IMG/VR virus record: IMGVR_UViG_3300020477_000001
Coordinates: 64,001-128,000 of that record
DNA: 64,000 bases
Direction: 5' to 3' (one strand)
Source: a virus
This document shows positions 14,658 to 61,207 of the stretch, piece by piece. The notes under the pieces are model-generated. The model had not been told where the DNA came from. It saw only the letters and a list, made by a program, of their open reading frames with translations, and ran no database searches. A program made the translations under genes and the position numbers. The first letter of the stretch is position 1. Each line of letters opens with the position of its first letter.

Positions 14658-14658
14658 T

Positions 14659-28788: not shown

Positions 28789-28795
28789 GACTTGC

Positions 28796-43922: not shown

Positions 43923-43951
43923 TTGACCGAAATTAAAAAACCATATAGCAT
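43923..43951 (+). promoter_or_regulatory. sigma70-type phage promoter for scaffold RNA and effector
   Basis: TTGACC-gaaaTTAAAAAAccata(17)-TAGCAT; predicted +1 near 43958. Confidence 0.7.
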
Positions 43952-43957
43952 AATCCC

Positions 43958-44120
43958 CAGTCGCTAACAGACTGCTACGGTGGGTTGCACCGGAAGGGGA
44001 GGGAAACCTCCAAATGCCGAATAGGTATGGTTCGCTTGCGAAGCAGATTCGGAAAGTTCCTAGGGGTCAACGGGGGGAGGATCATCCCGATCCTCCTCCC
44101 GCCCCCAAACCCTACAACAC
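43958..44120 (+). ncRNA. putative tracr/omega-like scaffold RNA of the TnpB/Cas12f-like effector
   Basis: Hairpins CAGTC/GACTG, CGGTG-GGTTG-CACCG, GGAGG-GAAA-CCTCC, CCGAAT/ATTCGG enclosing TTCG-CTTG-CGAA, long GC stem 44071-44101; ends in repeat-like CTACAACAC. Confidence 0.7.
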
Positions 44121-44129
44121 ATCTTTAAA

Positions 44130-45638
44130 ATGAAAAAAAAATCTAAACTTCAAAAGGTTGAACAAGAAACTATTCCTGTTAAATACCGAATCTACCCAAA
44201 CCTTAAGCAACGCAAATACCTTGACAGATGCTTTCTTTCCAGCCGAATCGTATGGAACTGGCTGCTAGGAGTACAGAAAGATTATGACCGTGGTCTTACT
44301 GAATGGGTAAAAGAAAAGTATGCCAAAGAGCTACAGAAATTCTGCAAGAAAGAAGGCTTCGAATTAAGCAGTCCATTTGAGCACGAAAAAATAAAAGAAT
44401 TAAAAAAAGGAGAAGCGAAAAAATTTCACACGGAAGTCATTCGCCTCAAGAAGGAGGAAGTTTTCCCCTCTGTCTTAGGGATAGAACTCCTTAAAGCCAT
44501 TATTCCTAATGCAGAAGAAGACGAAATCAAGAAGATGATAGTCAACAAAAAGAATCCTTCCGCTTCTAACAAGACTATCAACATCATGGACTTAAAAAGG
44601 CAAGTAAAAAACCTTCGAGAAGATAAACCAATCTTAAACCAAGTCGCATCCCAAGGAATCCATCACGTACCGCTTAACCTAGCTAAAGCTTGGAAGGCGT
44701 GCTACGACAAGAACCGCCCAGATTCCGGTGAGCCTAAATTCAAGAACAAATTCGCGAAGCAGTCATTCACTTTTGACACAGCAAAGCTTCAAGGAAATAA
44801 GTTATTCCTCCCGCCTAAAAGCAAAAACATTTTCATTAAAACAAAAGTCCATCGAGAGATGGAGGGTGAGCAAAAAACAATTACTGTTACTAAAAGCAAA
44901 ACAGGAGAATACTACGCCTCAGTTAACTTTAGGCAAGATGTATTCTTCCCGAAGCCCAAAAGTTTTAGTAAATCGAGCACGGTTGGCATTGACCTAGGAA
45001 TTAAAGATGACTACATCATTATGTCTAACGACATGGGGTCAATCAAAAACCCAAAATTTTTCAAGAAGCATGAGCGCAAAATCGCAATGCTAAATCGAAA
45101 ATTATCGCGCTCCCAGCCGAATAGCAATTCACGCAACAAAGTTCTACACGAGCTTAACCGCGAGTACGAGAAGCTCTCTAAAGCAAGGGAAGATTTTCAG
45201 CATAAGGTAACACACCAGATCGTAACTAACCCAAACATCAAGGCGGTGGCTGTCGAGGACTTGAATGTGAAGGGCATGACAGCTAAGAACAAACCAAAGG
45301 AGGGCGAAAATGGCCACTACTTACCAAACAATCAGTGCGCCAAACGAGGACAAAACAAAGCCACTCTGGACGCTGGGTTTGGAAGAGTTAGGCAGATGCT
45401 TGACTACAAATGTAAGCGCAATGGCAAAACGTTTGGAAAAGTTGACAGGTTCTTTGCATCCTCCAAAACATGCAACAACTGCGGTCATATCAATAAAGAG
45501 CTCAAAGTTTCCGACCAGTACTGGACCTGCGAAAAATGTGGCGAGCATCACGAGAGGAACTTTAATGCGGCAAATAACGTGCGAGATGAATTTATACGCG
45601 CAAGCAAGCAGAAAAAGAAAACCAAGAACTCGAAATAA
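44130..45638 (+). CDS. tnpB: TnpB/Cas12f-like RNA-guided protein, RuvC-III Asp replaced by Asn
   Basis: YRIYP...SRIVWNW N-terminus, GIDLG (D288), VEDL (E376), SSKTC..C, C..C zinc ribbon, HERNFNAANN (N477); no tnpA nearby. Confidence 0.85.
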   Translation: MKKKSKLQKVEQETIPVKYRIYPNLKQRKYLDRCFLSSRIVWNWLLGVQKDYDRGLTEWVKEKYAKELQKFCKKEGFELSSPFEHEKIKELKKGEAKKFHTEVIRLKKEEVFPSVLGIELLKAIIPNAEEDEIKKMIVNKKNPSASNKTINIMDLKRQVKNLREDKPILNQVASQGIHHVPLNLAKAWKACYDKNRPDSGEPKFKNKFAKQSFTFDTAKLQGNKLFLPPKSKNIFIKTKVHREMEGEQKTITVTKSKTGEYYASVNFRQDVFFPKPKSFSKSSTVGIDLGIKDDYIIMSNDMGSIKNPKFFKKHERKIAMLNRKLSRSQPNSNSRNKVLHELNREYEKLSKAREDFQHKVTHQIVTNPNIKAVAVEDLNVKGMTAKNKPKEGENGHYLPNNQCAKRGQNKATLDAGFGRVRQMLDYKCKRNGKTFGKVDRFFASSKTCNNCGHINKELKVSDQYWTCEKCGEHHERNFNAANNVRDEFIRASKQKKKTKNSK

Positions 45639-45649
45639 TTTTTGCCCAA

Positions 45650-45703
45650 GTGGCTGGCGGCGGCAGAGACTTTTATCTCTTCGGTCCTTGCTCCGCCAGC
45701 CAC
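45650..45703 (+). terminator. long GC-rich hairpin after the effector gene
   Basis: GTGGCTGGCGG...CCGCCAGCCAC followed by ATTTT. Confidence 0.45.
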
Positions 45704-45839
45704 ATTTTAAAATAAATAAAAATGAAAAGCGACAATCCAAACCGAGGCAACGGCAAGCACATTCATAAGTCACCAATCAATATGGACAATCCACAAAAAA
45801 AAGAGGATAGTGACTGGTGGGCAGAATTGTGTAAAAAAC

Positions 45840-46412
45840 ATGGAGCAAAAAACGCTTGGAAAAAAGAGAACAAAAAGAAGGTATGACTACGCTCATGGCT
45901 CTGAATCAGCAGTGATCGCCAGAGATGAATACCTCGAAAGAATAAAATGGAAGCCGCACGAATATGAAGTCATAAAAAACAATTACAATAATCATTCTGA
46001 TGCGGAAATAAGCCTCAAGTTCCTGCCTCACCGCACACCCGAATCAATAAGAAGATGTAGGCGCTCAATGAAATGTCACAGAAAGCCGAGCCACCAAATT
46101 TGGACAGAAGAAGAATTAGAATTACTGTATATCCATTGGAGAGACTACGACCAGAGGGAGCTTAAGGAAAAATTCTTCCCAAACAAAACCGTTGAGCAGG
46201 TTAGGAATGCTAAAATGCATCGCGGGCTAAAGAAGCCCCCAGTCTGGACCAATGAAGAGAGAGGCTTGCTGATAGACCACGGAGCGAACTATGACAGAGG
46301 ACAGCTACAGAAGCTGTTTTTCCCAAATAAAACCAAGGACCAAATAAGCCACATGAGAAAGCACCTCGGAATCAGAAGAAACCTAGGCGATAAAGAGATT
46401 AAAAAAGTGTAA
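45840..46412 (+). CDS. Myb/SANT-like repeat protein
   Basis: Three ~48-aa repeats: W.P.E..., WTEEE.ELL...FP.KT..Q, WTNEE..LL...FP.KT..Q. Confidence 0.65.
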   Translation: MEQKTLGKKRTKRRYDYAHGSESAVIARDEYLERIKWKPHEYEVIKNNYNNHSDAEISLKFLPHRTPESIRRCRRSMKCHRKPSHQIWTEEELELLYIHWRDYDQRELKEKFFPNKTVEQVRNAKMHRGLKKPPVWTNEERGLLIDHGANYDRGQLQKLFFPNKTKDQISHMRKHLGIRRNLGDKEIKKV

Positions 46413-46742
46413 TTGATATTGATGAAATCAGAGTATTTCCCTATTCTAATGCTTCTGTCATTTTTATTTTTATTATTTTTTGTCTTGAGATGGAATCGAA
46501 TTAAGATGAAGAATTTCCCAGAGGATATCTCCTTCAAGGATACGCTTAAACAAGTTTTCTTCATTGAGTCTTGACATAGATTAAAAAATCCCCCACCCTA
46601 CACTCCTTGAAAGAAAAAGACAGCCGCATTAAAAGTTGCGAAAAATGTGGCGTATCAATGCTAAAGATGTTTAATGCTTGCCCGTACTGCGGTTTCTGCC
46701 AAAAGCAAAAAACTAAATTAGCGCAGACAACTAAGGAGAAAC

Positions 46743-47177
46743 ATGAGGAAAAACAAGATTTCATTAGTAAGCGGCGGATTTGATCCAATTCACGTTGGAC
46801 ACATAGAACTCTTTAACAGGGCTAGAGAAATCTCTGACGGGCTATTCGTGATCTTGAATAGTGATAGGTTCCTCACAGAAAAGAAGGGCAAGCCCTTCAT
46901 GCAGCAACCAGAAAGAAAAGTCATTATTGAAAACTTACAGATGGTTGACTTGGTTATACCTTCAATAGACGAAGACCAAACGGTTTGTGCTACCCTGCGA
47001 AAACTAGCTAGCCTCAAGGACGCAGTTGACTCTGAATTATATTTCTGCAATGGTGGAGACAGGACGGACGGCGAGAACACGCCAGAACACAAAGTCTGCG
47101 AAGAAGTCGGAATACACAACGTTTATGGATTAGGTGAAAAAATCCAAAGCAGTAGTTGGCTTACGAAAGGGAACTGA
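46743..47177 (+). CDS. cytidyltransferase-like (HIGH) protein
   Basis: SGGFDPIHVGH, NGGDR, KIQSSSWL. Confidence 0.8.
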   Translation: MRKNKISLVSGGFDPIHVGHIELFNRAREISDGLFVILNSDRFLTEKKGKPFMQQPERKVIIENLQMVDLVIPSIDEDQTVCATLRKLASLKDAVDSELYFCNGGDRTDGENTPEHKVCEEVGIHNVYGLGEKIQSSSWLTKGN

Positions 47178-47199
47178 AACACATAAAATCACCGTCGCG

Positions 47200-47751
47200 A
47201 TGAAGAATTTAACCTGCGATAGCAAGAAGGGGAGAGAGTATGAAGCTCACGAAGAGAAAGCTATACTCTATATACAAGAGAAAAGAAATGTTGTAATAAC
47301 CTCTACGAGGTCAGAGCTCAATGAGGAATCAAAAATCCTAGAACAAGATATCTTAATCTCCAAAAAAGATGAAAGAGGAATCTTCAGACTAAGGGCGGTA
47401 GGCGAATTTAAGAACAGGAATGAATTCAAAAGAGGCTCTGGAATCCCGTTGACGCTAGAGAAGCTAAAAGGAGATAGACCTAATGACGGCTACATGATTA
47501 GCCTCAGAAAGCTAAAGAGTGGCCAAGCAATGTCTACGTCCCTAAAGGTTCCTTTCGTTGTTATTGTTAATTTAATGAATGATAAATACATTCTCTGCTG
47601 GAAGCTGACCAACGAGAAAGGTCAATGGGTTAAAAGACCGGAATCACTCAAACAAGAGACGCAGAAGAACATTGCAGGGGGAAATAAGCTTGACGACGTA
47701 GTTTATCTTAAATTATCAGAAACAGCTTTTCAACTTGAAAAAAACTACTAA
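47200..47751 (+). CDS. putative PD-(D/E)XK-like nuclease
   Basis: QDILI...VGEFKNR. Confidence 0.4.
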   Translation: MKNLTCDSKKGREYEAHEEKAILYIQEKRNVVITSTRSELNEESKILEQDILISKKDERGIFRLRAVGEFKNRNEFKRGSGIPLTLEKLKGDRPNDGYMISLRKLKSGQAMSTSLKVPFVVIVNLMNDKYILCWKLTNEKGQWVKRPESLKQETQKNIAGGNKLDDVVYLKLSETAFQLEKNY

Positions 47752-47780
47752 TAGGTTAAACTGAGAAAACTTAAAAAATT

Positions 47781-48143
47781 ATGAGCGAAGATAACAATAA
47801 CTCTAATACCGAAGAAACTACAAAAAACTCCAAAGACTTTTCGAGGCAAGAGGAAAACTGGAAAATTATGATTTTCTGTAATATTTCTTGGGAAGAGGCT
47901 TCGAAGGTAGAAGGCGACGACAGGGAGTTCCTTTTGCTGAAGGCTGACGAGCAGAAAGTAGAAGTACTCAAAAGGAAAAAAGAGTTGGCCGAGCAACAGA
48001 TGGCAGAGCAGCAGCAACAGGCCATGATGCAACAGCAAGCCTTGATGCAACAGCAGCAAATGATGCCCCAGCAGATGCCAATGCAGCAGCAAATGCCTAT
48101 GAACGGCGGCGGTATGCCTCCCCAGATGCCCCAGAGAGTCTAG
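47781..48143 (+). CDS. protein with Q/M/P-rich low-complexity C-terminus
   Basis: QQQQAMMQQQ...QQMPMQQQMPMNGGGMPPQMP. Confidence 0.55.
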   Translation: MSEDNNNSNTEETTKNSKDFSRQEENWKIMIFCNISWEEASKVEGDDREFLLLKADEQKVEVLKRKKELAEQQMAEQQQQAMMQQQALMQQQQMMPQQMPMQQQMPMNGGGMPPQMPQRV

Positions 48144-48150
48144 AGGGAGC

Positions 48151-48468
48151 ATGGATGGCCATTTAAAGCTTCTAAATCCGAAAAGGATAAGAGTTAAGTC
48201 GCTGTGCTGCTCTTATTGTGATCTTTCTTATAACAGAGAACACTATAAGGCTTTATTCGAGGCTAAAAAATTAATTTATTTTAAATCTCTAGATACAAAC
48301 ATATTTAGAGAGAAGGAAATAATTTGCCATGACTGTTTAGTTAATCTAGCAGACAAAGAGTCACTTTCATTCAAAGTAGAAACAGATACACATATTCTTA
48401 AATTAGATATAGACCCAACGATAGGCAATAAAGGCGACACAGATGACTTTTTAGATGATTTAATATAG
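48151..48468 (+). CDS. hypothetical Zn-binding protein
   Basis: CSYC / CHDC. Confidence 0.45.
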   Translation: MDGHLKLLNPKRIRVKSLCCSYCDLSYNREHYKALFEAKKLIYFKSLDTNIFREKEIICHDCLVNLADKESLSFKVETDTHILKLDIDPTIGNKGDTDDFLDDLI

Positions 48469-48506
48469 ACTTGACTTAACTTAAAAAACTCTATATCTTC
48501 CTATGC

Positions 48507-49430
48507 ATGTACAATTTGTGCTGCATATCAAATTCATTAGCCAAAGAGGGTCACAAGTTTCAGACCATGACTTGGGCTAGGTTCTCCAAGTTACCCCGCG
48601 AAGAAGCTATTGCAATCGTTTCTGCTCGCACTCTTAACAATCTGAAAGTTACGCGCAAGATTCTTGAGCAGTGTGCAGAGCATGGCTGGGGCTATCGCGT
48701 TAGCTCTGCTTTATTTCCACTTCTTACTTACGATGTAGCAGAACTCAAAATTCAAGACTACCCAGACTGGATTGACATACAAGCTGCATTTGCAGACTGC
48801 AATATGTTCATCAATGACAATCGTATCCGCATCTCATGTCATCCAGATCAGTTCAATGTTCTTGCAAGCTTGGGTAAAGCGCAGGTAGAAAAGACTATCA
48901 AAGAACTCAATCATCATGGTTGGTTCATGGATATGCTTGGTGCTCCTCGCGACTATCGCGCACCCATCAACATTCATGTCAACAACACCAAAGGCGAGCC
49001 TTCAGAAATTGCTGACCGTTTTATGCTCAACCTTTACAAGTGCGACCAATCTGTACGCTCACGACTAGTCATAGAGAACGAAGACAAAGGCATCTGGACT
49101 CCAGCGTTACTTGTCGAGCATTTCACCACATTGCCCATTACTTACGACAACCTACACCACAAATGCTTACCCGATGGCCTCACAGAGGATGAAGCCTATC
49201 GCTTGTGCTATAACACATGGCAAGATAACGGTTACTTCAAACCACTGTTTCATTACTCAGAGTCTCACCCAGACAAAAACAATCCACGTAGCCATGCCGA
49301 CACACCCACCGAGATACCGCTGGACGGCGGACATTCTTTCCCTGTTGACTACGACATAGAACTCAAGTCAAAAGATGACGCCATTAAAGAGATACAAAGA
49401 TTAGAACTGAAGGGGTTAATAAATGGATAA
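48507..49430 (+). CDS. uvsE: UV damage endonuclease
   Basis: LCCI, RVSS.LFP, HPDQF.VL.S, INIH, RLVIENED, YDNLHH, HYSES, HAD, IELKSKD. Confidence 0.9.
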   Translation: MYNLCCISNSLAKEGHKFQTMTWARFSKLPREEAIAIVSARTLNNLKVTRKILEQCAEHGWGYRVSSALFPLLTYDVAELKIQDYPDWIDIQAAFADCNMFINDNRIRISCHPDQFNVLASLGKAQVEKTIKELNHHGWFMDMLGAPRDYRAPINIHVNNTKGEPSEIADRFMLNLYKCDQSVRSRLVIENEDKGIWTPALLVEHFTTLPITYDNLHHKCLPDGLTEDEAYRLCYNTWQDNGYFKPLFHYSESHPDKNNPRSHADTPTEIPLDGGHSFPVDYDIELKSKDDAIKEIQRLELKGLING

Positions 49431-50340
49431 AAAAGAGAAAACAAAATCGACAGATAGAAATATAGTTTGCATAGATTGCGGGGAGGAGTTTACAGGATGC
49501 TATAGAACCAAGAGATGCAAACCCTGCGCGAAAGAGAGGGCGAACGCTTTAGCTAGAAAGAGGAGGGCAGCTAACCCAGAGAAATATCGCACTTACGATA
49601 GAGCTAGATATGCCGCCTCCCCGAAGAGACGTGAGCAATCGCTTGCAAGTCAGCATCGCAATATAGAGAGAACTAGAGCAACCAGAAGAAAGAGTTACAA
49701 TAATAATAGAGATAAAATTTTAGCCAAAGCAAAATCGGATCGCGAGGCTAACCCAGAGAAATATCGTGAACGGAAGAGGGTTGCTTACCGCGCTAACCCA
49801 GAGAAACACCGAAAAGAGGCAAGAGACCGAAGGGCGGCTAATCCAGAAAAGTACCGCGCCCAAGCTAAGGCTAGGTATCATGCCAACCCGCAAAAATTCC
49901 GCGATCAAAGGAAAAAGTCTTTTGAAAACAACCGAGAGGAAGTAAACAGACGAGCTAAGGAGAAAAGGGCAGCTAACCTAGAGAAATATCGCGCTAGAGA
50001 CAAAGAGGCTGAAAAAAGACGACCTGCTGGGCAAGCACTGGCGAAATCCAATGCGAGAAAAGCACTTAAACAGTCTGCAATCTTACCTACAACAGATTTT
50101 GATAAAATAAAAAATCTTTACAAAGAAAGGACTAGACTAACAAAAAAAACAGGCATAGAGCATCACGTTGATCATATAATCCAATTAACCCTAGGAGGCG
50201 CACACCATCAAGACAATTTGCGCGTGATAACAGCAAAAGAAAACCTCACAAGGGGTTACGACTACGACCCCACTCTTGGTGGTGTATGGGCAAACAATGA
50301 CCGAGCAAGGAAAACTAAGAAAAAATTAGGAATCAAATAA
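49423..50340 (+). CDS. HNH endonuclease with N-terminal Zn finger and helical repeats
   Basis: CIDC/CKPC, repeated (R)AANPEKYR, HVDHII....GG.H...NL.VI...EN. Confidence 0.8.
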   Translation: MDKKEKTKSTDRNIVCIDCGEEFTGCYRTKRCKPCAKERANALARKRRAANPEKYRTYDRARYAASPKRREQSLASQHRNIERTRATRRKSYNNNRDKILAKAKSDREANPEKYRERKRVAYRANPEKHRKEARDRRAANPEKYRAQAKARYHANPQKFRDQRKKSFENNREEVNRRAKEKRAANLEKYRARDKEAEKRRPAGQALAKSNARKALKQSAILPTTDFDKIKNLYKERTRLTKKTGIEHHVDHIIQLTLGGAHHQDNLRVITAKENLTRGYDYDPTLGGVWANNDRARKTKKKLGIK

Positions 50341-50508
50341 TGATAACGCCCCCGAAGATCATAGGTTTTATATGGGTAGCATTCTTAACACTGTTTTACT
50401 TCTTCGCCTCAATAGCTGTTTTTATTGTTACTTCAATCGCTAATATTTTTAAAAAAGAATAAATAAAAAACCTTGACTAAAGTTAAAAAACTCTCTATTA
50501 TATTACCC

Positions 50509-51390
50509 ATGAAGAGAATTGATACTTATTTCGCAAAAGAGTACGAGGCAGACACACCCACTGCCTCTATGCGTAAGTTGCGCCCAGTGGCTGAAGCAGC
50601 TAGTGCTGCTGGTTACGCAAACATCTTGAAGACATCCTCCAGCGAAGGCGTTAGCGACAAGCTAAAAAAAATTCACAATGCAGATTACGTGGAAGCCTTC
50701 TCTAACGGTACTTATCCGCTCAGCGAAAGCAATGGATGGGGCTGGAGCAAAGAGATTAGGGACGGCGTTTTCAGAATTAACACAGGGCAGCTTGACGCTG
50801 CTAAAGCTGCGTTAAGCAACGGCATTGCAGCAAATGTAGCGCAGGGGTTTCACCATGCTGGAATCGAAAGAGGCTGCGGTTATTGTACCTTCAATGGGTT
50901 AGCACTAGTCGCTAATGAATACAAGACCAAGAAAGTATTCGTTTTAGACTGCGATGAGCATGGAGGCAATGGTACGGCTGAGTTTACCAACATACTGGAC
51001 AACTTATCGCAGGTAACCATCAACGGCTCTAATTTCGGAACCGAAGAGAACCCCCGCAGCCGATGCATTACTCTTCCTCGAATCACTAACCGATTTGAGC
51101 TTTACGAAGATGCACTGGAAGAAGGCTTCTCTATAATGGATAGGTTCGAGCCCGACTTGGTTATCTACCAAGCTGGTGCTGATCCTCACATTGACGATCC
51201 CTTGGGCTCTCTGGGTATGACAACCGAACAAATGTACAACAGAGACAAGAAAGTATTTACGAAGCTCAAAGCTTCAAATATACCGACAATGTTCGTACTG
51301 GCGGGGGGCTATCAAACCCCGATTGAGGAAAAACTTGTACCGCTGCACTTGAACACCTTCAAGGCTGCTCACGAAGTATACAACAATTAA
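50509..51390 (+). CDS. histone deacetylase family (Zn-dependent deacetylase)
   Basis: GFHHA, GYCTFN, LDCDEHGGNGT, QAGADP..DDPLG, LAGGY. Confidence 0.88.
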   Translation: MKRIDTYFAKEYEADTPTASMRKLRPVAEAASAAGYANILKTSSSEGVSDKLKKIHNADYVEAFSNGTYPLSESNGWGWSKEIRDGVFRINTGQLDAAKAALSNGIAANVAQGFHHAGIERGCGYCTFNGLALVANEYKTKKVFVLDCDEHGGNGTAEFTNILDNLSQVTINGSNFGTEENPRSRCITLPRITNRFELYEDALEEGFSIMDRFEPDLVIYQAGADPHIDDPLGSLGMTTEQMYNRDKKVFTKLKASNIPTMFVLAGGYQTPIEEKLVPLHLNTFKAAHEVYNN

Positions 51391-51435
51391 AGGAACAACA
51401 ACACAGCACCAAAGATACTATCTCCGTAGCATACT

Positions 51436-51846
51436 ATGAACATCAAAAGAGAAACAACAACAGCATGGGTAGTTTTCCCAGAATATACCCAATGGGAAAA
51501 CAAGGACAATAAAATGTTCTGGGATGAAGATTACGACCTAGAAGCTGCCGCAGATGCTGCCGTAAAACATTCATGGAAAAAGCCCATAATGACTAGAAAA
51601 TGGCCTCGGCCTGTCACTTTCGGTGACTTTGTGCTTGTTACCAATAGCAATTCAAGCGAGTGGTTTAAGATGATTCGCTGTAAAGGCGGATGTAATGGCT
51701 ATGAGTGGCAAGTCTCATCTTGGGAAGAGGTTTTTGGCGAAGAGGCGGCAGTTAGGAAAGACATGAAAGGATACCTTGAAGACGCTGCTAAAGTAAATGA
51801 CGCCCTAACTGAATTTGAGGAGAAACAATGCACAACGGAAAAGTAG
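51436..51846 (+). CDS. hypothetical protein
   Basis: ORF in operon. Confidence 0.5.
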   Translation: MNIKRETTTAWVVFPEYTQWENKDNKMFWDEDYDLEAAADAAVKHSWKKPIMTRKWPRPVTFGDFVLVTNSNSSEWFKMIRCKGGCNGYEWQVSSWEEVFGEEAAVRKDMKGYLEDAAKVNDALTEFEEKQCTTEK

Positions 51847-52262
51847 GATTTACTTGTAGCTGCTTTGACCTTTTACACGCTGGCCACTGCTTGATGCTGA
51901 AGGACTGCAAAGAGCAGTGCGACTGGCTTGTCGTTGGCCTCCAAACCGACCCCAGCGTCGATAGACCAGAGAAAAACAAACCAGTCCAGTCACTTGAAGA
52001 AAGAAAGATACAATTAGAAAGCATAAAGTACGTTGATCAAGTGCAAATATACGAAACAGAATCAGACCTAGTAAAACTGATTGAGGATGTCCATCCAGAC
52101 GTAAGGATACTCGGTAGCGATTATATAAATAAAAAATTCACTGGCGATCACCTAGACATTCCCGTATACTACCACGAAAGAAACCACGATTGGTCCACTA
52201 GCGATTTAAGAAAAAGAATCAAAGGGGAATGGCCTCACCATACAGACTATCTGGATGACTAA
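51828..52262 (+). CDS. glycerol-3-phosphate cytidylyltransferase-like protein
   Basis: FDLLHAGH, VGLQTDP..DRPEKNKP, RNH.WSTS.LR. Confidence 0.8.
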   Translation: MHNGKVGFTCSCFDLLHAGHCLMLKDCKEQCDWLVVGLQTDPSVDRPEKNKPVQSLEERKIQLESIKYVDQVQIYETESDLVKLIEDVHPDVRILGSDYINKKFTGDHLDIPVYYHERNHDWSTSDLRKRIKGEWPHHTDYLDD

Positions 52263-52490
52263 CCAGCGTACTGCAACACAATAAAAAAACGCGATTAATA
52301 AAATAATGAAAGCCTTTCCTTTAGTTCTTTTAATTTTATTTATTTTTATTTCTGGCCCTTTAGTTACCATTTGGATGCTTAATACTCTATTTTCTGTAGA
52401 TATTCCATACACTTTGGAAACTTGGGCTGCTGCTTTTGTATTAGGAGCCGCGCTTTACGGTCCTAACGCAAGGAAAGAACTACGCGATAA

Positions 52491-52769
52491 ATGAAGAGAG
52501 TAGATATACAAAATCATATAAATGAACACTACCCAGAAATGGATGAAGATATTCTTTTAGCTGATGGATTCGAGAAAGCTTTTTTGGGGATTGCTAATAG
52601 TTATTGCTCCGCGCCCAGAGCTTGCTATGATGCTGATAAATGTATAGAAATCCTAGAAAAGAGAGACGGAATGAGTCATGAGGAAGCTATTGAATTTTTT
52701 AATTTTAATGTTTCTTCTGCTTATGTCGGGGAGTTTACGCCAGCATTTATGAAATTGGCGCATAGTTGA
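52491..52769 (+). CDS. conserved hypothetical phage protein
   Basis: LLADGF..AF.G...YD..KCI..L...GM..EEA.EFF.FNV..AY.G..TP. Confidence 0.6.
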   Translation: MKRVDIQNHINEHYPEMDEDILLADGFEKAFLGIANSYCSAPRACYDADKCIEILEKRDGMSHEEAIEFFNFNVSSAYVGEFTPAFMKLAHS

Positions 52770-53039
52770 TATTTCTTGACACTGTTTTTGTTTATGTTAT
52801 TTTTTCGGCCATGAGAATGGCCGACTTCGTGAAAGGGCATAATAAGCTGAAAATTAGCAGTTTTCAGTACCTTTGTGCGTTTCAAGCTGGCCACTTAGAT
52901 AAAGACAAGGATGATTCTTATTGTCCTTATACATTTCCGCCGCAAATAGAAGCATATTTTCAAGGTAAAAAAAATAAAAACAAAAAAATTATTAACAAAT
53001 TCTTGACTTAATTAAAAATGAATGGAATAGTGGGACTCC

Positions 53040-53993
53040 ATGAGTAGCTACCTAGAAGAAAAGTCGTCGGAAGATTTATATTTTAATGAAATTTCAAGAT
53101 ACGATTTAATCTCCTCGGATCGAGAAAAAGAGTTAGCAAAAAAAATAAAAAAAGGCGGAAGAACTGGCAAAAAAGCCCTTGAAGAATTAGTTAATGCTAA
53201 TTTAAGATTAGTCGTAAAGATAGCTGGAGAGTTCAAAGGCTTTGGGTTGGATTCTGGCGATTTAATCAACGAGGGAAACCTCGGATTGATGAGGGCCGCT
53301 GAAAAGTATGATGGCCGCGAAGGCGTTAAGTTTTCAACATATTCCGCGTATTGGATAAGGCAAAGTATCTACAGAGCCCTCTCGAATAAGAGCAGAACAA
53401 TTAGGCTTCCCGTTCATGTTTGCGCTGCTAATTCTAAAATAATTAAATTTATTTCAAAATACCAAGAATCCAACAATGGAAAAAAGCCTTCAGTTAAGCA
53501 GATAGCGAAAGCCACCAACGCAACAGAAAGATTGGTGTCGGATGTAATAAATGGTGGAGTGACCAACGTAAACTCTCTAGACAGAGAAATCGGAACTGAT
53601 GACAGCGGCTCTAAAGAGACCCTAGGGAACATAATTGAGGACCAAAACGCTGAATCCCCCGACCAAATCTGGAAAAACGTGGAAGATGTTAGTATTCTAT
53701 TAAAATTGATACAAAAATTAAATAATAGAGAAAGATACATAATTTGCAATAGATATGGAATAGGAACCAAGACCCCAAAAACTCTAGAAGAAATTGGGGA
53801 ACACTTCGGCGTTACTAGGGAAAGAATAAGGCAGGTACAAAAAGTAGCAATGATGAAGTTAAAAAACTACATGGATAAGTATTATAGATACAAGCCAGAG
53901 GTTGAGGATCATTATGTTGAAGGCCGAAGATTTGTAGCAAGGGTTAAAAGAGAAGAAAAAGCCAGAGAAAAGAAAAAAAAGGTTAAAAAATAG
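53040..53993 (+). CDS. sigma-70 family (RpoD/RpoS-like) sigma factor
   Basis: ANLRLVVKIA, DLINEGNLGL, KFSTY..YWIRQ, RTIRLPVH, TLEEIG...VTRERIRQ. Confidence 0.92.
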   Translation: MSSYLEEKSSEDLYFNEISRYDLISSDREKELAKKIKKGGRTGKKALEELVNANLRLVVKIAGEFKGFGLDSGDLINEGNLGLMRAAEKYDGREGVKFSTYSAYWIRQSIYRALSNKSRTIRLPVHVCAANSKIIKFISKYQESNNGKKPSVKQIAKATNATERLVSDVINGGVTNVNSLDREIGTDDSGSKETLGNIIEDQNAESPDQIWKNVEDVSILLKLIQKLNNRERYIICNRYGIGTKTPKTLEEIGEHFGVTRERIRQVQKVAMMKLKNYMDKYYRYKPEVEDHYVEGRRFVARVKREEKAREKKKKVKK

Positions 53994-54245
53994 TGTAATT
54001 TTTTTAAGAACTGCTACACTGGTTCAATAATAGAATAACAATCAAACTAAATATGTAAACACAACAACAATAAAGGGGGCGCATGAAAGATTCAGAATTA
54101 TTATTAAGGGAGGTTTCTTTTGAGTTATTAGGCAAGTTGAACGATACTTACGAAAGTGATTCCGAATATGCGGCGGGGCAAAGGTTTGCATACCTTAAAT
54201 CAATTTTAATCATTAAAAAGAAACTATCTGAAACTAGGAATAATA

Positions 54246-54815
54246 ATGCCAAGACACCCAATTGATGATGAGGTTTACACGTTCGACGATATAGGCAAAA
54301 ATGCGCCAAGGTTGAGCTACAATCGTAAAATTAAAAAGATCGTCTTCGAGAACTACGAAGCTTTCTGGCTTTTGCTTCACGCCACAAAACACCCAGATAT
54401 TATTAATGGAGTTATCTTTGAAACAGATGACAACTTCAAGGCTCATTATATAAAACAAACAGGGGATAAAGACTTAAATAATCTTTATATAAATAAATTT
54501 ATTTTAAAAGAGATGATGGAGGCTATGAACATAAGCGACCAGCATGATACCTTCCAAGGGTCATTCCAAGATAAGAATATGCACCTCTGGATGACCAACC
54601 AAAATGAATCCGAGAACATGGAGGATGCCAAGGTTCTCAGCAGTAAGTCTCAGTCAGAGCGGCAGAAGAGATTTGATCAAAAGACCAAGGAGAGAGAGCA
54701 ACAAGGAGAAGAAAGAATGAACGCACAAGAATTCCTTGAGTGGTCATCGGAGCATGTAGAAGAAGACTTAAAAAAGAGAATAGATGCAGGAGACACAAAT
54801 TGGAAATTCTTATAA
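54246..54815 (+). CDS. hypothetical protein
   Basis: 189-aa ORF. Confidence 0.5.
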   Translation: MPRHPIDDEVYTFDDIGKNAPRLSYNRKIKKIVFENYEAFWLLLHATKHPDIINGVIFETDDNFKAHYIKQTGDKDLNNLYINKFILKEMMEAMNISDQHDTFQGSFQDKNMHLWMTNQNESENMEDAKVLSSKSQSERQKRFDQKTKEREQQGEERMNAQEFLEWSSEHVEEDLKKRIDAGDTNWKFL

Positions 54816-55682
54816 TGCAAAAGCCAGACAACAAAATGAAGCGCTGGCTAAACTCTCAGACCAAAGATTTAAAAAAAATTAATTTTAATTCTCTGGTAAA
54901 TTCATTCAAAGACAAGTTTAAGGTCAGTATCAACGATGCTCGTATGTACGTGATGCAATGGGACCACGACAGAAACAAGCATTAAACCGCCGTATTAGAT
55001 GCTTGACATATATTAAAAAACTCCTTATCATATATCTACAGACATACCTTAAGATATATATAGGAACAAACAATGGACTTAATATTTGCGGCAATAGTGA
55101 TATACTTCTTCTGCTTTGCTTTTAAGCAGCTAGTCAAGGATTTGTAAATCGAGGGGGAGCTACAACACAACAAATTGTGAAAACAATAGCCCTGTTTTTA
55201 CGAGCTTTTTACACATTTTTTAAAACACTCACAGTGAACTACAACACTATAAGCTAGTATGGAACTAATAAACACAATAAAGCATTTCAAAAGAATAAAA
55301 TAAAATATTGAAGTGTATTAAAATGGGTTAATGTGGGGTGCATATTATATATATATCCGTCAAGCATTAAATTTAAAAACTATTCACATATTTATTAACA
55401 CTGAAACCACGTCAAGCAAAAACAACAAAAAACAATAAAAAACTTATTAATATTTTCTAAGTCAAGAAAAAACAAACAAAAACTTAAAAAATTATTATTG
55501 ACTATATAGCAAATATATGGGCTTAAAACCAAGAAAAGAAGGAGAAGCAAAAAGAATAGCAACATACATAATATTAATCATATATGGAATTGTTATACTT
55601 ATAGTTTATCTATTAAATAAATTATTTTCTTGACACAGATAAATGGAATTAAAACACAATAAAGAATAGAGGGTTTTTTTTG

Positions 55683-55792
55683 TTGACTTAACTTAAATAA
55701 ATTAGTATAATGTTTCCAAAGGGGCTTCATCACAACAAAGGTAAGATTTTTCTTGACTTAAGTTAAATAATATATTAAAATTTTCCAAAGGG
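55683..55792 (+). promoter_or_regulatory. tandem near-duplicate sigma70 promoters upstream of the repeat field
   Basis: TTGACTtaacttaaataaattagTATAATgtttccaaaggg and TTGACTtaagttaaataatatatTAAAATtttccaaaggg. Confidence 0.7.
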
Positions 55793-56101
55793 ATTTTTTT
55801 TATTTTTTTTAATTCTTATAATAGGAATTATTTTTTTCTTGACAAGTAAATAATGTTTCTTATTCTTATTATGCTTAAGGAGCTACACCACGTTATTAAC
55901 ACCAACGTACACGGAACTACACCACCCATTTGCCGACGATTGATTTTTAAGGAACTAAAGCACGGATTCGAACTCACGTCTGGAACTACGACACCCATTT
56001 ACCAAGGAGCCGCAACACGTCGAATGCAGTGGTATATTTGTGAACGCAATCGAGCCAAATAATAGGAACTAAATACACGAGGTCGGGAGTTCAGAAAAGC
56101 C

Positions 56102-56130
56102 TTGACTCATCTTAAAAAACTCTTCATAAT
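56102..56130 (+). promoter_or_regulatory. promoter of the CRISPR array
   Basis: TTGACT-catcTTAAAAAActctt(17)-CATAAT. Confidence 0.7.
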
Positions 56131-56226
56131 AGTCCCCAGATTAAGAAACTGATCTTTGACATAGGCACTGCAACACACGAGGCCAAAGACATTCAAGGGA
56201 CTACAACACAACATTATGGTATTCCT

Positions 56227-56777
56227 TAGCAATTTAAGGGACTGCAACACAGTAAGGCGATTATAACATCGCGCTCGACGGTTCGCACTGGTACTAATTT
56301 AAGGGACTGCAACACTGCAACCATGCTAACTAACGTGGTTACACAGCTTCGCACTGGTAGCAATTTAAGGGACTGCAACACTGTTACACACATCGCTGCG
56401 ATGAAGCGGCGGCTTCGCACTGGTACAGATTTTAGGGACTGCAACACCGTATCAGAACGAGATATCGTCCCGCCTTGGGCTTCGCACTGGTAGCAATTTA
56501 AGGGACTGCAACACTTAGTCGAACCGCATAACGTCGAGTGTCTGCTTCGCACTGATAGCAATTTAAGGGACTGCAACACAATGAGGCAGATAATGGAAGG
56601 GGTAGCTAGCTTCGCACTGATAGCAATTTAAGGGACTGCAACACAAAACTGCACCAACAGGAAGCGGAATCACAGTTTTGCACTGGTACTAATTTAAGGG
56701 ACTGCAACACAAGGGGTGACGTAGTGGAAGCGACCACATAAGCTTCGCACTGGTACAGATTTTAGGGACAACAACAC
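56227..56777 (+). CRISPR. CRISPR array: 8 full 36-nt repeats plus 1 partial, 8 spacers of 29-31 nt
   Basis: Consensus GCTTCGCACTGGTAGCAATTTAAGGGACTGCAACAC at 56280, 56346, 56412, 56479, 56544, 56609, 56675, 56742; unique spacers. Confidence 0.93.
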
Positions 56778-56797
56778 AGTAAAGAACCCTACGTACA

Positions 56798-57659
56798 TAT
56801 TTGTGAATGATTTTTGGACAAATAAAGGAACAACAACACTGAATCTCTAGGCGATATTTGTGAATGATTTTAAGGCAAATAAAGGGAACTACAACACTCT
56901 GTTAAAGTCCGTCCAACACGAGGCGGCGAGAATTGATGCCGATCAAAATACTTAATTATTGATTGACTAATTTTTTTGTCGCTCATTTGTGAACGTCAAA
57001 GAGGCAAATAATATAGGGGAATTAAATTAGATATTTTAGATTAATAGGGACTAATTAAACACGATGCTCAATCCCAATATTGTTAATTTATGAATGATTT
57101 TTTGCCAAATAAGGGTTATTTAACATAAGGGAATTTCGTATACAAGAAAAATGTTGCCCCGGAGAAAACACCCCCTTATAAGAAATATATTAAAGGAACT
57201 AAAACACAACAAAAGTGATGAAGAATTTAATTTTAATTATTATTATTTTAATTATTACTGGTTGTTATACAGCCAAGGAAAGAGTAATGCCTCTTGGTCC
57301 CCATGATGATAGCTATGGTAAGAATTGGGTAAGTAATTAAGGAACTGTAACACCAAATCCAGCATGGCGTTTAGATATTTTGGGAACTAAAACACGGGTA
57401 TAGCTCATTTGAAATAGGAACTAGAACACATGTGGTGCGCCATTATATTTGTGAACGCGATTTTTGCAAATAAAGGAACTACAACACCAGCGGTTTCAGA
57501 AGCTATCTGTGAACGCGATTTTTGCAAATAAAGGAACTACAACACCCGTCATGGAATTATAACACTAACTCCTCAGATGGAACTACAACACGTTGAGATA
57601 CTGCTTTCGCGGGAGCTATCTGTGAACACAATTTTTGCAAATATAGGGAACTACAACAC
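56798..57659 (+). repeat. second repeat class: hairpin TATTTGTGAA..TTTTGCAAATA followed by GGAACTACAACAC
   Basis: Copies near 56035, 56798, 56856, 57446, 57504, 57617; degenerate copies near 56984 and 57085. Confidence 0.75.
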
Positions 57660-57890
57660 GACGGGAACTCACGACGGAGAGTTAATCAAGGAACAACAAC
57701 ACGAAAACTTTTTCTGTATTCTTGATCTTGTAATGGAACTACAACACTCAAGGGCGGCTCATTTTAATTTAAAATAAAAAAGGGAACTACGACACTTGCT
57801 ATTATTAATTGTATCTTTAATTAGTGTAATTATTATTGTCTATAAGTTTTTATTGACTGTAATTAAATTGCTCTATATAAAAGGATACAC

Positions 57891-58127
57891 ATGAAAAAAA
57901 AGAAACTATCCCCGCAAGCCCAAATATACGAGAAGGCTTGGAACGACGTAGTGTCCGAAATGAGTGACCATAAAAGAAATATTATTATTAATAATTTTAC
58001 TGTTGTCAGTGGTCATCATGTATATGAGAATAAATATGATCAAAGGGTAGCAGATGAAGCAGCTAAGGAAGCCCGTATACGAGGTGACCAACAAATAGAA
58101 GCACTGTTTCCAACTGGCAAGTATTAA
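57891..58127 (+). CDS. hypothetical protein
   Basis: ORF with promoter and AAGGA SD; mini-repeat follows the stop. Confidence 0.55.
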   Translation: MKKKKLSPQAQIYEKAWNDVVSEMSDHKRNIIINNFTVVSGHHVYENKYDQRVADEAAKEARIRGDQQIEALFPTGKY

Positions 58128-58278
58128 AGGTACTACAACACGAGCGGGCACTACAGTGGTAGGAACAACAACACAGTCCCCTGCTATAATCTATGGAACT
58201 AAAGCACGAGTGCATATAGTAGAAAAAAATAAAAAAAAATAATTGACTTAAATTAAAAAAAACTTCATACTGGTCGCC

Positions 58279-58521
58279 ATGAAGAGAAAAGGTTCTGGCA
58301 AAACAAAGGGAGCGACCAGCTTCGTACAAGTGACACTGGGAGAGCTCAACCGCGTACTCAAAGAGGGTGCAGTGGTTGTGGTCAGTCGCAAGTACGCCGA
58401 GCAACTGGAGCTCGATTCTAAGCCCATGTATTCTAATTACAAGAATCTTGAGGCCCACTCAAACCAAATCGATGTCAAGATCGATGAACCGGAGGACACA
58501 ATTGATTTCAAAGTAGAATAA
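58279..58521 (+). CDS. hypothetical protein
   Basis: Leaderless-type start after TTGACT promoter. Confidence 0.6.
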   Translation: MKRKGSGKTKGATSFVQVTLGELNRVLKEGAVVVVSRKYAEQLELDSKPMYSNYKNLEAHSNQIDVKIDEPEDTIDFKVE

Positions 58522-58594
58522 TGGAATAACAACACGAACGAAAAGACTTCATAAAAGTCTTGACCTAACTTAAAAAACTATATAATATATCCCT

Positions 58595-59554
58595 ATGACG
58601 AACGAACGAACTATCCCCAACCCTTTCGAGGGTATCATTGGCCAAAAGAAGGCTAAGAAACAGATAAACTTTTACAGGCGAGGCTACAATGCCACAGGTA
58701 TTCTTCCTCACCTATTGTTTGTTGCTCCGAAAGGATGCGGCAAGACCATGCTGGCTAAGGCTGTTAAAGACACTCTTATGTCCAGAGAGAACCCAGAGAA
58801 AGCTAAGAAGTTTCTGGAGATTAACTGCTCTACGCTTCGCAACGTCAAGCAGTTCTTTAATCAAATCATGATTCCTCATGTTCAACACGAGGAAGTCACA
58901 ATCTTATTCGATGAATCCTCTGAGATTCCTCACGATGTTTCGATGGCACTGCTTACGTGCTTAAACCCGAACAAGCATAATCGTAACGAGTTCTCTTACG
59001 AGGACTATACGGTAGAGATTGACTTCTCGCGACACACTTTCATGTTCGCCACCACCGAGGTGCAGACCATGTTCCACGCTCTTATTGACCGATGCAAGCG
59101 CATCGATCTACAGGAGTACTCTTTAAAGCAACTCGGACAGATTCTCAAGGTTAACCTTGAGGGTATCGAGTTCGAGGAGGGTCTGATGCCCGACATCGCC
59201 TCTACTCTTAGGGGCAATGCTCGTAAAGCAGTTCAGACTGCCAACGACATTTCCTCGTACATGGCGGCGGAGGAGCGAGGTTACTTCACTCGCAAGGACT
59301 GGAACCTGTTCAAAGATGAGCTAGGAATCGAGCCACTCGGATTGTCTCCGATTGAGATTCAACTCTTAGAGATTCTCAACGACAAACCAGAGTGCAGCTT
59401 GACCTACCTGTCAGCCAAGACTGGCATGACCAAGGCGGCAGTACAGAGGGACATTGAGATGTACCTTCTCAAGAACGATCTAATGGAGATCGGCACTGGC
59501 GGACGCAAGATCACCAACAATGGACGTGAGACCTTGGAGGTCATCAATGGATAA
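58595..59554 (+). CDS. ruvB: RuvB-like AAA+ ATPase (Holliday junction branch migration)
   Basis: IIGQ..AK, PHLLF.AP.GCGKT, LFDE, ATT, RGNAR, GL...E...L, C-terminal E.YL.....I...GR.IT. Confidence 0.75.
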   Translation: MTNERTIPNPFEGIIGQKKAKKQINFYRRGYNATGILPHLLFVAPKGCGKTMLAKAVKDTLMSRENPEKAKKFLEINCSTLRNVKQFFNQIMIPHVQHEEVTILFDESSEIPHDVSMALLTCLNPNKHNRNEFSYEDYTVEIDFSRHTFMFATTEVQTMFHALIDRCKRIDLQEYSLKQLGQILKVNLEGIEFEEGLMPDIASTLRGNARKAVQTANDISSYMAAEERGYFTRKDWNLFKDELGIEPLGLSPIEIQLLEILNDKPECSLTYLSAKTGMTKAAVQRDIEMYLLKNDLMEIGTGGRKITNNGRETLEVING

Positions 59555-59885
59555 AGTTACTGCGGAACAGCTTAAGAGAGAGCCATCGGCTCCCTTCGAT
59601 AGAATCGTTCGTCATATGGAGGATTTCCTCGCTGCGCGGATGTGCAGCGAGGAGTCCTTCAACCAAGTGAAGCGTAACACCTACAAGTACACAGACTGCG
59701 GCGCTTGGATTGACGAGGACGAGAACGGTATTACTGTAGGAAGTATTGTCGAAGGAGCAGACTACGGAACCTCGACTTACGTTTTAATCTACCCATTCAA
59801 GATTCAAGAATTCTGGGATGCATTGAATGAAGTAGAGATGGAGGCTAAACAAATCTGGGAGGAGGTCAATGGAGAAGAACAATGA
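59547..59885 (+). CDS. hypothetical protein
   Basis: ORF coupled to ruvB; YKYTDCGAW, GSIVEG. Confidence 0.55.
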   Translation: MDKVTAEQLKREPSAPFDRIVRHMEDFLAARMCSEESFNQVKRNTYKYTDCGAWIDEDENGITVGSIVEGADYGTSTYVLIYPFKIQEFWDALNEVEMEAKQIWEEVNGEEQ

Positions 59886-60216
59886 CATAGACTTCGCAAT
59901 ATTAAACCAAAAAAGATATGAAAAATATAAAGGAATTAATTTAAGTACTTGTTTCTTAGTACATGAATCAGAAAAGGGACACATGAAGGACTGGACTTGT
60001 ATCACGCGGAATGATGACTTCTTTAGAGTAAACATTATCGCAGGTATGGTCTCAATGATGAGAGGAGAAACAGAGTACGACATTACGGGACCAGCAACAA
60101 ATATACTAAACCCCGTACTAGGATTACAGAACAAAGAAGATTTGGAAAAATGTAAATTCTCTGATATAAAGAAGTTTATGAAATGGAGAATCAATAAAGA
60201 TAACTATATAGAATAA
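59869..60216 (+). CDS. hypothetical protein
   Basis: ORF in operon. Confidence 0.45.
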   Translation: MEKNNDIDFAILNQKRYEKYKGINLSTCFLVHESEKGHMKDWTCITRNDDFFRVNIIAGMVSMMRGETEYDITGPATNILNPVLGLQNKEDLEKCKFSDIKKFMKWRINKDNYIE

Positions 60217-60405
60217 GATTATGAATAAGAAAGATACAAATACATATGTTGTTAAGATGACCGAAACCAGCAACGGAGTGGTCGTAGACTCAGTGCAGCA
60301 ACTCGTACAAGTGCTCGGTGTAGATCGTGAGAAGTATAAGACTATCGACAAGCGCGACTTCACCAGCAAGCATCTCAATACTGTTACTAAATTCACAGCG
60401 CGTTA

Positions 60406-60633
60406 ATGAAGAAGTCTCACTGGAAAGAAGGTCTTGAAATACCCAAGCCACCAAAGGGAATCACTCACGCCCAAATAAAGTGTGGCAAGAAGAAGTCTAC
60501 CGTAACTATAAACGACTTCGACACTTTCCGAGGGGTAGAGGGAATGGTGCGCTGGGGTAAGCAAAAGAAGAACAGTAAAACAATTGAATTAATAGGAGAA
60601 GAATTCTTTTGGGACGGATTTAAAGTAGAATAG
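60406..60633 (+). CDS. hypothetical protein
   Basis: ORF; its stop overlaps a mini-repeat. Confidence 0.5.
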   Translation: MKKSHWKEGLEIPKPPKGITHAQIKCGKKKSTVTINDFDTFRGVEGMVRWGKQKKNSKTIELIGEEFFWDGFKVE

Positions 60634-61207
60634 GAACTACAACACAACATAATATTCGCGACTCGCAAGGGAACTACAACACGTTCAAGGACTTGGTATA
60701 AAAATTTCCTCCCAAACCGTGGGCTATCCCAACCCCACACCGGAGTCGATGGAATAGAGGCGGAAGAGAGCTCCGCACTAGCGATGGGGATATCGCTACG
60801 TTTAACACCATCGGCTCCTTGACTTCTTTCAAATAACCTCGTATACTAATACCAGCAAACCAAATAATACAATTTTATCTTTCCTGTATTATTGAAAGTT
60901 CAAACTTCTTAATGTCTCTATGCAATTTAGGGACAACTTCTGCCCTTCATCGGCAAACAAAAATGAATCAAATAACACCAAATAAAAGCGAACCATATAC
61001 GAACAAATAATAGACAAATAAAATAGATATAAGAATATAAGAATATAAAATTTGGCGGGTGACCCTATAATAATAGAACAACAATTGTTAATAACTTTTT
61101 AATAATGTTAATAATTTTTTCTTGACTTAAACATACAGAAAAACGGAATAACAATTATTTTTTTCTTGACAAGCAAAATCGTGTAGAAAATTTTTTATAT
61201 TTTTTTG

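Follow-up and report, generated by a model that had tools for sequence, protein, structure and literature searches.

A predicted TnpB-derived, tracrRNA-dependent CRISPR-like system with 13-nt guide handles in a marine phage

TnpB is known to have yielded CRISPR nucleases (Cas12 and TranC) and, separately, dead single-guide repressors (TldR and dCas12f). One viral lineage described here shows both states: a sister branch that keeps the catalytic Asp and a classical array, and an offshoot that lacks this Asp and carries a small array together with dozens of putative guides behind minimal handles. The offshoot is represented by the TnpB-family effector, scaffold RNA and guide units of a 64,000-nucleotide (nt) stretch of phage DNA (the window), namely bases 64,001-128,000 of the 158,301-bp IMG/VR virus record IMGVR_UViG_3300020477_000001, which has direct terminal repeats and is rated complete. 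Coordinates are those of the window unless marked as genome.

Among the closest described systems, TranC reportedly goes back to a Cell paper of 2025. TldRs have one fixed guide beside the gene, are often C-terminally truncated, and have had promoter targets identified. Cas12f repeats end in a GGAAU/GCAAC-like motif, similar to the end of the phage repeat, and Cas12j (CasPhi) and Cas-lambda are active nucleases with full-length repeats that need no trans-activating CRISPR RNA (tracrRNA). TranC has been described as a transposon-CRISPR intermediate, in some cases phage-borne (10.64898/2026.03.27.714800; LaTranC, PDB 9jfo/9jfq). The dCas12f-sigmaE system of Bacteroidetes is linked to extracytoplasmic function (ECF) sigma factors and activates transcription (PMC13472631). 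A literature search found no description of the present effector clade or of guide units with a 13-nt handle.

Set beside these, the locus reads as a phage-carried CRISPR-like system of the type V or TranC kind, derived from TnpB and dependent on a tracrRNA. As judged from sequence, its effector, scaffold, array and bare 13-mers are one system, since the parts co-occur on one strand in related loci and no other Cas effector candidate was found in the phage. A preliminary description of this DNA had linked the parts in the same way, and had allowed that a different Cas effector elsewhere in the genome might explain the array. We lean, with some reserve, towards a nuclease-dead DNA binder that would serve natural multiplexed repression, because the Asn that replaces the catalytic Asp is invariant under strong purifying selection and because many conserved, hard-wired guides suit a regulator.

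Effector, scaffold RNA and guide units

The effector gene and its scaffold RNA lie side by side, as follows:

43923-43955, plus strand: promoter for the scaffold, of the extended phage type (TTGAC, 5 nt, TTAAAAAA, -10 box)
43958-44120, plus strand: scaffold RNA, tracrRNA- or omega-like, with its start inferred from the promoter
44130-45638, plus strand: effector open reading frame (ORF), 502 aa, TnpB-derived

The promoter at 43923 probably also drives the effector mRNA.

The effector carries the Pfam domains HTH_OrfB_IS605, OrfB_IS605 and Cas12f1-like_TNB and matches the NCBIfam family guided_TnpB at 2.8e-67, and the best structural match of its AlphaFold2 (AF2) model (predicted local distance difference test score, pLDDT, 72) is ISDra2 TnpB (8h1j, E = 3e-17). 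It thus has the fold of TnpB and its architecture of helix-turn-helix (HTH), RuvC and zinc ribbon, but not the intact D-E-D triad. Aligned to ISDra2 TnpB, D191 (RuvC-I) and E278 (RuvC-II) are kept as D288 and E376, and D361 has become N477, the RuvC-III motif reading HERN where ordinary TnpBs read HDRD. The RuvC mutation proposed in the preliminary description is therefore real, and the effector is probably nuclease-dead. Two insertions set the protein apart, one of ~110 aa past the N-terminal HTH and a Cas12n-like one inside RuvC; the latter aligns with Cas12n 9j09, the Cas12n match being limited to residues 300-495. The gene also lacks the marks of a mobile element: it is single-copy, has no Y1 TnpA, keeps syntenic neighbours in relatives, and has its scaffold 5' of the gene. 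Searches of the complete 158-kb genome returned no Cas1, Cas2 or Y1 TnpA and only one TnpB-like gene, the effector itself, and the earlier picture of a standalone 502-aa gene without tnpA, cas1 or cas2 holds beyond the window.

The predicted fold of the scaffold region (43955-44120) has an energy of -71 kcal/mol (z = -3.5 against shuffled controls), in agreement with the earlier proposal of a structured RNA under its own promoter. Within it are an unpaired hairpin loop GGTTG (43983-43987), an unpaired anti-repeat AGTTCCT (44055-44061) and a handle-like 3' end (44112-44120), all three exactly where the preliminary description had placed them; the handle-like end is compatible with a residual single-RNA form. 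The scaffold lies upstream of the effector in every clade locus for which upstream sequence is available. An alignment of eight copies contains 35 consensus pairs, 11 of them with compensatory changes, and in this alignment the GGTTG loop is invariant and unpaired and GGAAAGTTCC is unpaired and unchanged except in L175. Between the window and its relative L172 the scaffold differs at 4 of ~166 positions (~2%), while the gene next to it has changed at 55% of its synonymous sites (synonymous divergence, dS, about 1). On account of the compensatory pairs and of this slow change, we regard the scaffold as a functional, conserved RNA. No Rfam family matches it.

The third component is a 13-mer, the handle, of which the window holds 42 copies when up to two mismatches are allowed (expectation 1.1, at most 5 in any shuffle), 41 of them on the plus strand, much as had been noticed at first; the whole genome holds 45 copies on the plus and 2 on the minus strand. 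The strand bias follows transcription, since the window's only close minus-strand handle trails a minus-strand reductase gene. Handle units come in three grades, namely full 36-nt repeats, hairpin-type repeats of ~41 nt, and bare 13-mers, with the guides of bare tandem units mostly 18-30 nt long. About 38 of the 44 units fall within one non-coding island of 3.4 kb (55156-58535) that holds several phage promoters, the others lie mostly at gene ends, and in a second sub-lineage the island abuts the effector; the genome-dispersed repertoire claimed at first was in this respect overstated. The predicted remote array of 36-nt repeats is present, 10.6 kb from the effector in the window, but adjoins it on the 3' side in relatives L010, L170 and L177 and on the 5' side in the sister lineage. 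Six handles (up to two mismatches) begin within ~8 nt of a same-strand ORF stop codon, and several lie 10-31 nt before the next start. The units and their promoters are:

19796-19808, minus strand: handle with one mismatch, the window's only close minus-strand copy, directly past the stop of a minus-strand ribonucleotide reductase gene
47170-47182, plus strand: handle overlapping the stop of a cytidylyltransferase-like gene
51392-51404, plus strand: intercistronic handle, 1 nt past the stop of a deacetylase-like gene, with the next ATG 31 nt on
55156, 55235 and 55645 (55156-55657), plus strand: bare handles lying apart at the island's left edge
55839-56100, plus strand: promoter and mini-array of bare handles with guides of 11-25 nt, including guide families A (55892) and B (55926, 55995)
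56102-56130, plus strand: extended promoter before the canonical array
56215-56777, plus strand: canonical CRISPR array of ten 36-nt repeats, the first degenerate, each ending in the handle, with spacers of 29-31 nt
56799-57795, plus strand: hairpin-type repeats (~41 nt, handle-ended) and bare handles with guides of 7-55 nt, including guide family C (56840)
58129-58227, plus strand: three bare handles recurring every 33 bp exactly, each with a 20-nt guide, starting 1 nt past a stop codon
58523-58535, plus strand: handle 1 nt past the stop of ORF 58279-58521, whose downstream sequence runs into the next promoter
60633-60682, plus strand: two perfect handles, the first overlapping the stop of ORF 60406-60633

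A small lipoprotein-like ORF, with a signal peptide ending in Cys, was seen behind a handle both in the window (57218-57306, at 10 nt) and in L170 (4707-4815, at ~32 nt). A likeness of guides 55964 and 56079 to a tRNA T-arm was dropped, as the implied stem is unpaired.

The effector clade and handle-scaffold pairing

A word-indexed search recovered nine full-length relatives of ~500 aa, with 95% down to 39% identity to the effector, after which the next-best matches were ordinary TnpBs of 390-415 aa, mostly cyanobacterial. An exhaustive profile search of 1.84 billion representatives gave only three clusters with a strong full-length match; P0123 and P0249, which also match over the full length but less strongly, are not part of the clade. 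All ten clade members (10/10) read HERN, with Asn for the catalytic Asp. The third cluster, P0122 (500 aa), has both clade insertions but reads HRD and so keeps the Asp. A quick maximum-likelihood tree unites the ten Asn proteins (Shimodaira-Hasegawa-like approximate likelihood ratio test, SH-aLRT, 80) and joins them to P0122 as their sister (SH-aLRT 99), a topology that fits a single loss of the Asp. The ratio of nonsynonymous to synonymous rates (dN/dS) lies between 0.03 and 0.14 in five effector pairs, a sixth being saturated at synonymous sites; under such strong purifying selection the Asn proteins are not decaying.

Effector, scaffold and handles occur together on one strand in all ten clade members with enough flanking sequence. 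In sub-lineage 2 (L010, L170, L177 and others), whose effectors share about 40% identity with that of the window, a handle overlaps or abuts the effector stop and is followed by the 36-nt array and then by bare and hairpin-type units, all on the coding strand; units number 22 over 10.7 kb of L010 and 18 over 5.4 kb of L170. The order in the sister lineage is array (10-22 repeats), promoter, scaffold, effector, with the catalytic Asp kept, and no handle was found outside the array in L184 (13.7 kb) or in two IMG/VR records (34.4 and 28.4 kb). Bare handles are thus seen only in the Asn lineage, which is one contrast and not a statistic. Arrays accompany effectors in three related lineages: P0123 (475 aa, Asp kept; L186 4573-6330), too, is followed at once by a structured region and three 37-nt repeats. 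Because the sister is already a full array, tracrRNA and effector system with its catalytic Asp, the Asn lineage with bare handles is, on this comparison, a derived offshoot of such a system, and its earlier description as a TnpB-to-type-V intermediate goes too far.

The sister lineage was found in IMG/VR by a wider repeat pattern, as was L190, a 73-kb contig; two narrow DNA patterns gave no relatives in IMG/VR, and scans of IMG/VR and JGI seeded with effector peptides returned ordinary TnpBs only among the matches listed. L190 has a small array of the window repeat type and bare handles (341-640 and 1556), with no effector in the 10.4 kb examined. The preliminary description had held that repeats without the effector, or the reverse, would count against a single system; the co-occurrence stands in clade members with enough flank. 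At its contig end (~1795-1819) L175 consists of Illumina adapter sequence, an assembly artefact.

Comparison between lineages also bears on the pairing of handle and scaffold. The preliminary description had proposed that the scaffold's AGTTCCT pairs with AGGAACT, and with AGGGACT through a G-U pair, and had suggested looking for covariation in related contigs, where two independent co-changes were indeed found. In the sister lineage the repeat reads TAGGACT and the scaffold AGTCCTA, against AGGAACT/AGGGACT and AGTTCCT in the window, with one base lost on each side. L175, which branches off first in sub-lineage 2, has GGGAT in its repeats and ATTCC for GTTCC in its scaffold, a C-G to U-A exchange. 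Among 100 distinct units, handle positions 3-5 show 65 wobble-compatible transitions (A-to-G and C-to-T), which keep pairing with the U, U and G of the scaffold, versus 9 other changes, and the first two G, opposite C, are 95% fixed. Pairing of the handle with the scaffold anti-repeat (GGAAC:GUUCC) is thus supported by the co-changes and by the wobble-compatible variation. A second contact, a pseudoknot between the CAAC of the repeat and the GGUUG loop, is consistent with the sequences.

Guides, targets and rival readings

From the parts, their linkage and pairing, the RuvC substitution and the selection upon it, which can be read directly, we infer RNA loading, loss of cleavage, DNA binding and repression of a set of targets in the following manner. 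The scaffold RNA, which lies just before the effector gene and has its own promoter, would bind the 502-aa effector. Guide RNAs from the same strand would come from three sources, namely the 36-nt-repeat array, the hairpin-type repeats and the bare 13-nt handles, the last transcribed either from mini-arrays equipped with promoters or as tails of phage genes, just past the stop codon. The handle would pair with the scaffold by GGAAC:GUUCC, and probably also by CAAC with the GGUUG loop, and this pairing would position the next 16-25 nt past the handle as the guide. Most probably the complex attaches to complementary DNA, leaves it uncut and blocks transcription, as a natural multiplexed CRISPR interference (CRISPRi). 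Since the hard-wired guides are shared by distant relatives, their targets are probably conserved genes, either host genes or those of some common rival element; for the small array, which changes fast, variable targets are likely.

Sub-lineage 2 has counterparts of four to five window guides, families A, B and C among them, where shuffled guides would give 0.02-0.14, and guide 58175 is conserved in L170. The counterparts differ at codon third positions. In our own reading of the frames, family A as a sense strand gives V-I-N-T-N/D, and families B and C as antisense give M-I/V-G-K-W at a gene start and R/H-L-E/K-I, respectively. This pattern points to conserved protein-coding targets, and the mixture of sense and antisense guides suggests DNA rather than mRNA as the target. 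The canonical array, in turn, is not common even to the close relatives L170 and L177. When DNA contigs from other ocean samples were placed on the window, some joined 56315 to 56760 over a different spacer, and other spacers were present in run X5. Across these ocean populations two letters of the mini-array (55785-56141) vary. Other populations also have a deletion the size of one unit (57353-57400) and substitutions that stay within one guide (57546-57576).

Several results weigh against the dead-binder reading. No target was found for any guide across all searches, which is the chief weakness of the case. Within the 158-kb genome no guide matched at more than 16/18; INPHARED (50,697 cultured phages) gave only AT-rich noise; an exact search of IMG/VR with one array spacer gave nothing; and 401 Pseudomonadota genomes gave one hit versus three in a reversed-pattern control. 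No RNA run is among the listed public runs with the phage sequence. Some inter-handle gaps (7, 11 and 13 nt) are too short for guides, and the CAAC/GGUUG-loop contact is invariant on both sides and hence shows no covariation. The state of the RuvC site and the placement of solitary handles, on which the first two alternatives below draw, point in the same direction.

Candidate targets met during these searches were set aside. Two array spacers matched at 16/18 (56645-56662 to genome 2491, and 56778-56795 to window 27261), yet these matches do not extend and, with ~0.3 expected, are probably chance. A degenerate family-A search of IMG/VR gave four hits, one in a dicistrovirus-like RNA virus and the rest in unrelated contexts, and one family-B guide gave two hits in gut alphaproteobacterial metagenome-assembled genomes among the 185,579 species genomes of GTDB, in the wrong reading frame; both results were taken as chance. 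The peptide motifs of families A and B are absent from the open frames of the phage, and a search for cross-targets between Asn phages (clade contigs) and sister-lineage phages gave nothing above chance.

The main rival is that the same RNA-guided system still cuts, with E475 standing in for the lost Asp in a RuvC site that has been rearranged or weakened; rival phages, plasmids or host DNA might then be its substrates, as they are for other compact type V systems borne by phages. Loss of cleavage hangs on one substitution, and E475, two residues upstream, is invariant in the Asn clade, where the sister has His, and could in principle take over; D288, E376, H474 and the zinc ribbon are all retained. 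Spacer turnover in the canonical array between populations is what an arms race would produce, and the sister lineage, with its 10-22 repeats, is presumably an active nuclease. Nevertheless, the residue aligned to ISDra2 D361 is Asn in every clade member, and the many hard-wired conserved guides are limited to the Asn lineage and suit regulation better than interference, so that continued cutting seems to us unlikely.

Alternatively, effector and scaffold might act mainly on RNA in cis, recognizing the handle through its pairing with the scaffold, to process polycistronic mRNAs or to govern translation of the next cistron, with DNA targeting secondary or absent. The handles close behind same-strand stops, including the minus-strand copy behind a minus-strand gene, and those shortly before the next start codon would fit such a role; several solitary handles sit between cistrons, which fits an RNA-level role better than guiding in trans. 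The handle at 47170 retains 12 of 13 positions in place in L173, where the next 20 nt retain only 13/20, and the failure to find trans targets agrees with this as well. The solitary unit at 47170 may indeed act at the RNA level, and a cis role of intercistronic handles may coexist with either a dead binder or a nuclease. As the main function it is improbable: most units form arrays in the non-coding island with 18-30-nt spacers and promoters of their own, guides are conserved over deep divergence with codon-like variation that suggests external coding targets, and the sister is an ordinary CRISPR array system.

A further alternative involves a nearby gene:

53040-53993: sigma-70-family gene with regions 1.2, 2, 3 and 4, of the four-region type and not ECF, 7.4 kb downstream of the effector

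By analogy with the published pairing of dCas12f and ECF sigma factors (PMC13472631), the dead effector might recruit this sigma factor to sites set by the guides and so activate transcription. Sigma matches also occur in relatives: a clear sigma-70 homologue adjoins the P0003 effector, and the sister-lineage contig L184 has a weak region-2 match. The gene is, however, neither adjacent to the effector nor of the ECF type, the phage genome lacks guide-matching sites for activation, and many large phages have sigma factors; we consider recruitment quite improbable. Least credible of all is that the bare 13-mers are debris of decayed arrays, or decoys against a host type V system of the anti-CRISPR-like kind known for solitary repeat units in other phages, for although the spacing of some units is very short or irregular, genomes already saturated at synonymous sites still share handles at set positions, the way the handle varies follows its pairing with the scaffold of this phage, guides are conserved, and the phage itself encodes the matching effector and scaffold.

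Returning to the dead-binder reading, a fuller version of it is offered tentatively, at somewhat less than even confidence. One tracrRNA would serve ~45 guides that require no more than 13-nt handles, many of them hard-wired, common to distant phages and released from dedicated mini-operons or from the 3' ends of mRNAs, and the dead effector of this lytic phage would silence conserved host or rival genes during takeover, while the small array tracks variable targets; the switch from cutting to binding would then coincide with the shrinking of repeats to a bare tracrRNA-pairing handle. The lineage would thus offer a natural experiment in how a CRISPR nuclease becomes a multi-guide regulator and in how little repeat a tracrRNA-dependent effector needs. 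If a 13-nt handle suffices, it would allow very compact guide multiplexing for miniature effectors, and should the conserved guides turn out to shut off host genes, a marine virus would be encoding an RNA-guided mechanism of host takeover.

Genomic setting and comparison with known systems

The phage sequence is present in marine metagenomes of 11 studies. Matches to PHROG families include a DnaE-like polymerase, a DnaB helicase, a ribonucleotide reductase, a large terminase and a tail fibre, and both TerL and the DnaE-like polymerase share only 24-31% identity with any cultured phage. The extended promoter is a phage-specific class with 19 copies in the genome:

43923, 46571, 48471, 50473, 55003, 56102, 58243 and 58560, and others: extended-promoter copies of the window

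At many of these the next gene's ATG lies only about 7-10 nt past the -10 box, which suggests leaderless mRNAs. The early region holds genes of the UvdE UV-endonuclease and histone-deacetylase families (48507-49430 and 50473-51390), and a UvdE gene also adjoins the effector in L170. On the minus strand, 105-16564 is an unbroken head-to-tail series of ~20 ORFs (186-364 aa, plus one of 122 aa), many with stop/start overlaps. The structural block contains an ORF of 4,792 aa (genome 11595-25973, outside the window), and two tRNA genes, Arg-TCT and Val-TAC, lie at 28712-28870.

With regard to described systems, Cas12j/CasPhi, Cas-lambda and the mini-arrays or solitary repeats of viruses resemble the present locus in pairing a virus-encoded effector with a small array and no Cas1 or Cas2; we know of no report, for any of them, of a 13-nt handle with its own promoters or in a 3'-untranslated position. 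With dCas12f-sigmaE the system would share a nuclease-dead (here predicted) miniature type V relative, a role in gene regulation and natural guide RNAs. It differs in belonging to a marine phage, in a weak fold match (rank 38), and in having its sigma-70 gene ~7.4 kb away rather than a tightly linked ECF sigma factor. TldRs are likewise TnpB-derived, with a RuvC-site loss conserved under selection, some are phage-encoded, and RNA-guided repression is expected of them (10.1101/2023.11.30.569447; PMC13622181). The conserved RuvC inactivation of a TnpB-derived clade appears to be common to both, but in place of a single adjacent, promoter-matching guide the phage has a split tracrRNA/CRISPR RNA (crRNA), a CRISPR array and about 45 guide units, and its effector keeps the C-terminus and zinc ribbon intact.

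Cas12f (Cas14) and Cas12n share the TnpB-like fold and a tracrRNA whose anti-repeat and loop pair with the repeat end; unlike them, the effector has lost the catalytic Asp, and its sequence match to Cas12f is marginal. No named subtype accommodates it, with 136 bits for C2c8 (cut-off 350), E values of 1e-4 to 1e-5 for Cas12f and 1e-5 for Cas12m, and a Cas12n match in the C-terminal half only. It nonetheless has the type V association of a RuvC effector with a CRISPR array, but lacks the adaptation module, which many compact and viral type V systems can do without. TranC-like seems the most fitting functional label, LaTranC being the published TranC with which it was compared (E = 1.5e-18, C-terminus only, and weaker than the match to ISDra2 TnpB). 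As in TranC, its nearest relatives are TnpBs, closer to IS605 TnpB than to any named Cas12, and it is nevertheless CRISPR-associated, with an array of 36-nt repeats, a tracrRNA like the front of an omega RNA or reRNA, a split tracrRNA/crRNA pairing predicted in silico, and no Cas1 or Cas2. Unlike TranC, it has lost the RuvC-III Asp, sets dozens of bare 13-nt-handle units beside its array, and carries conserved, hard-wired guides.

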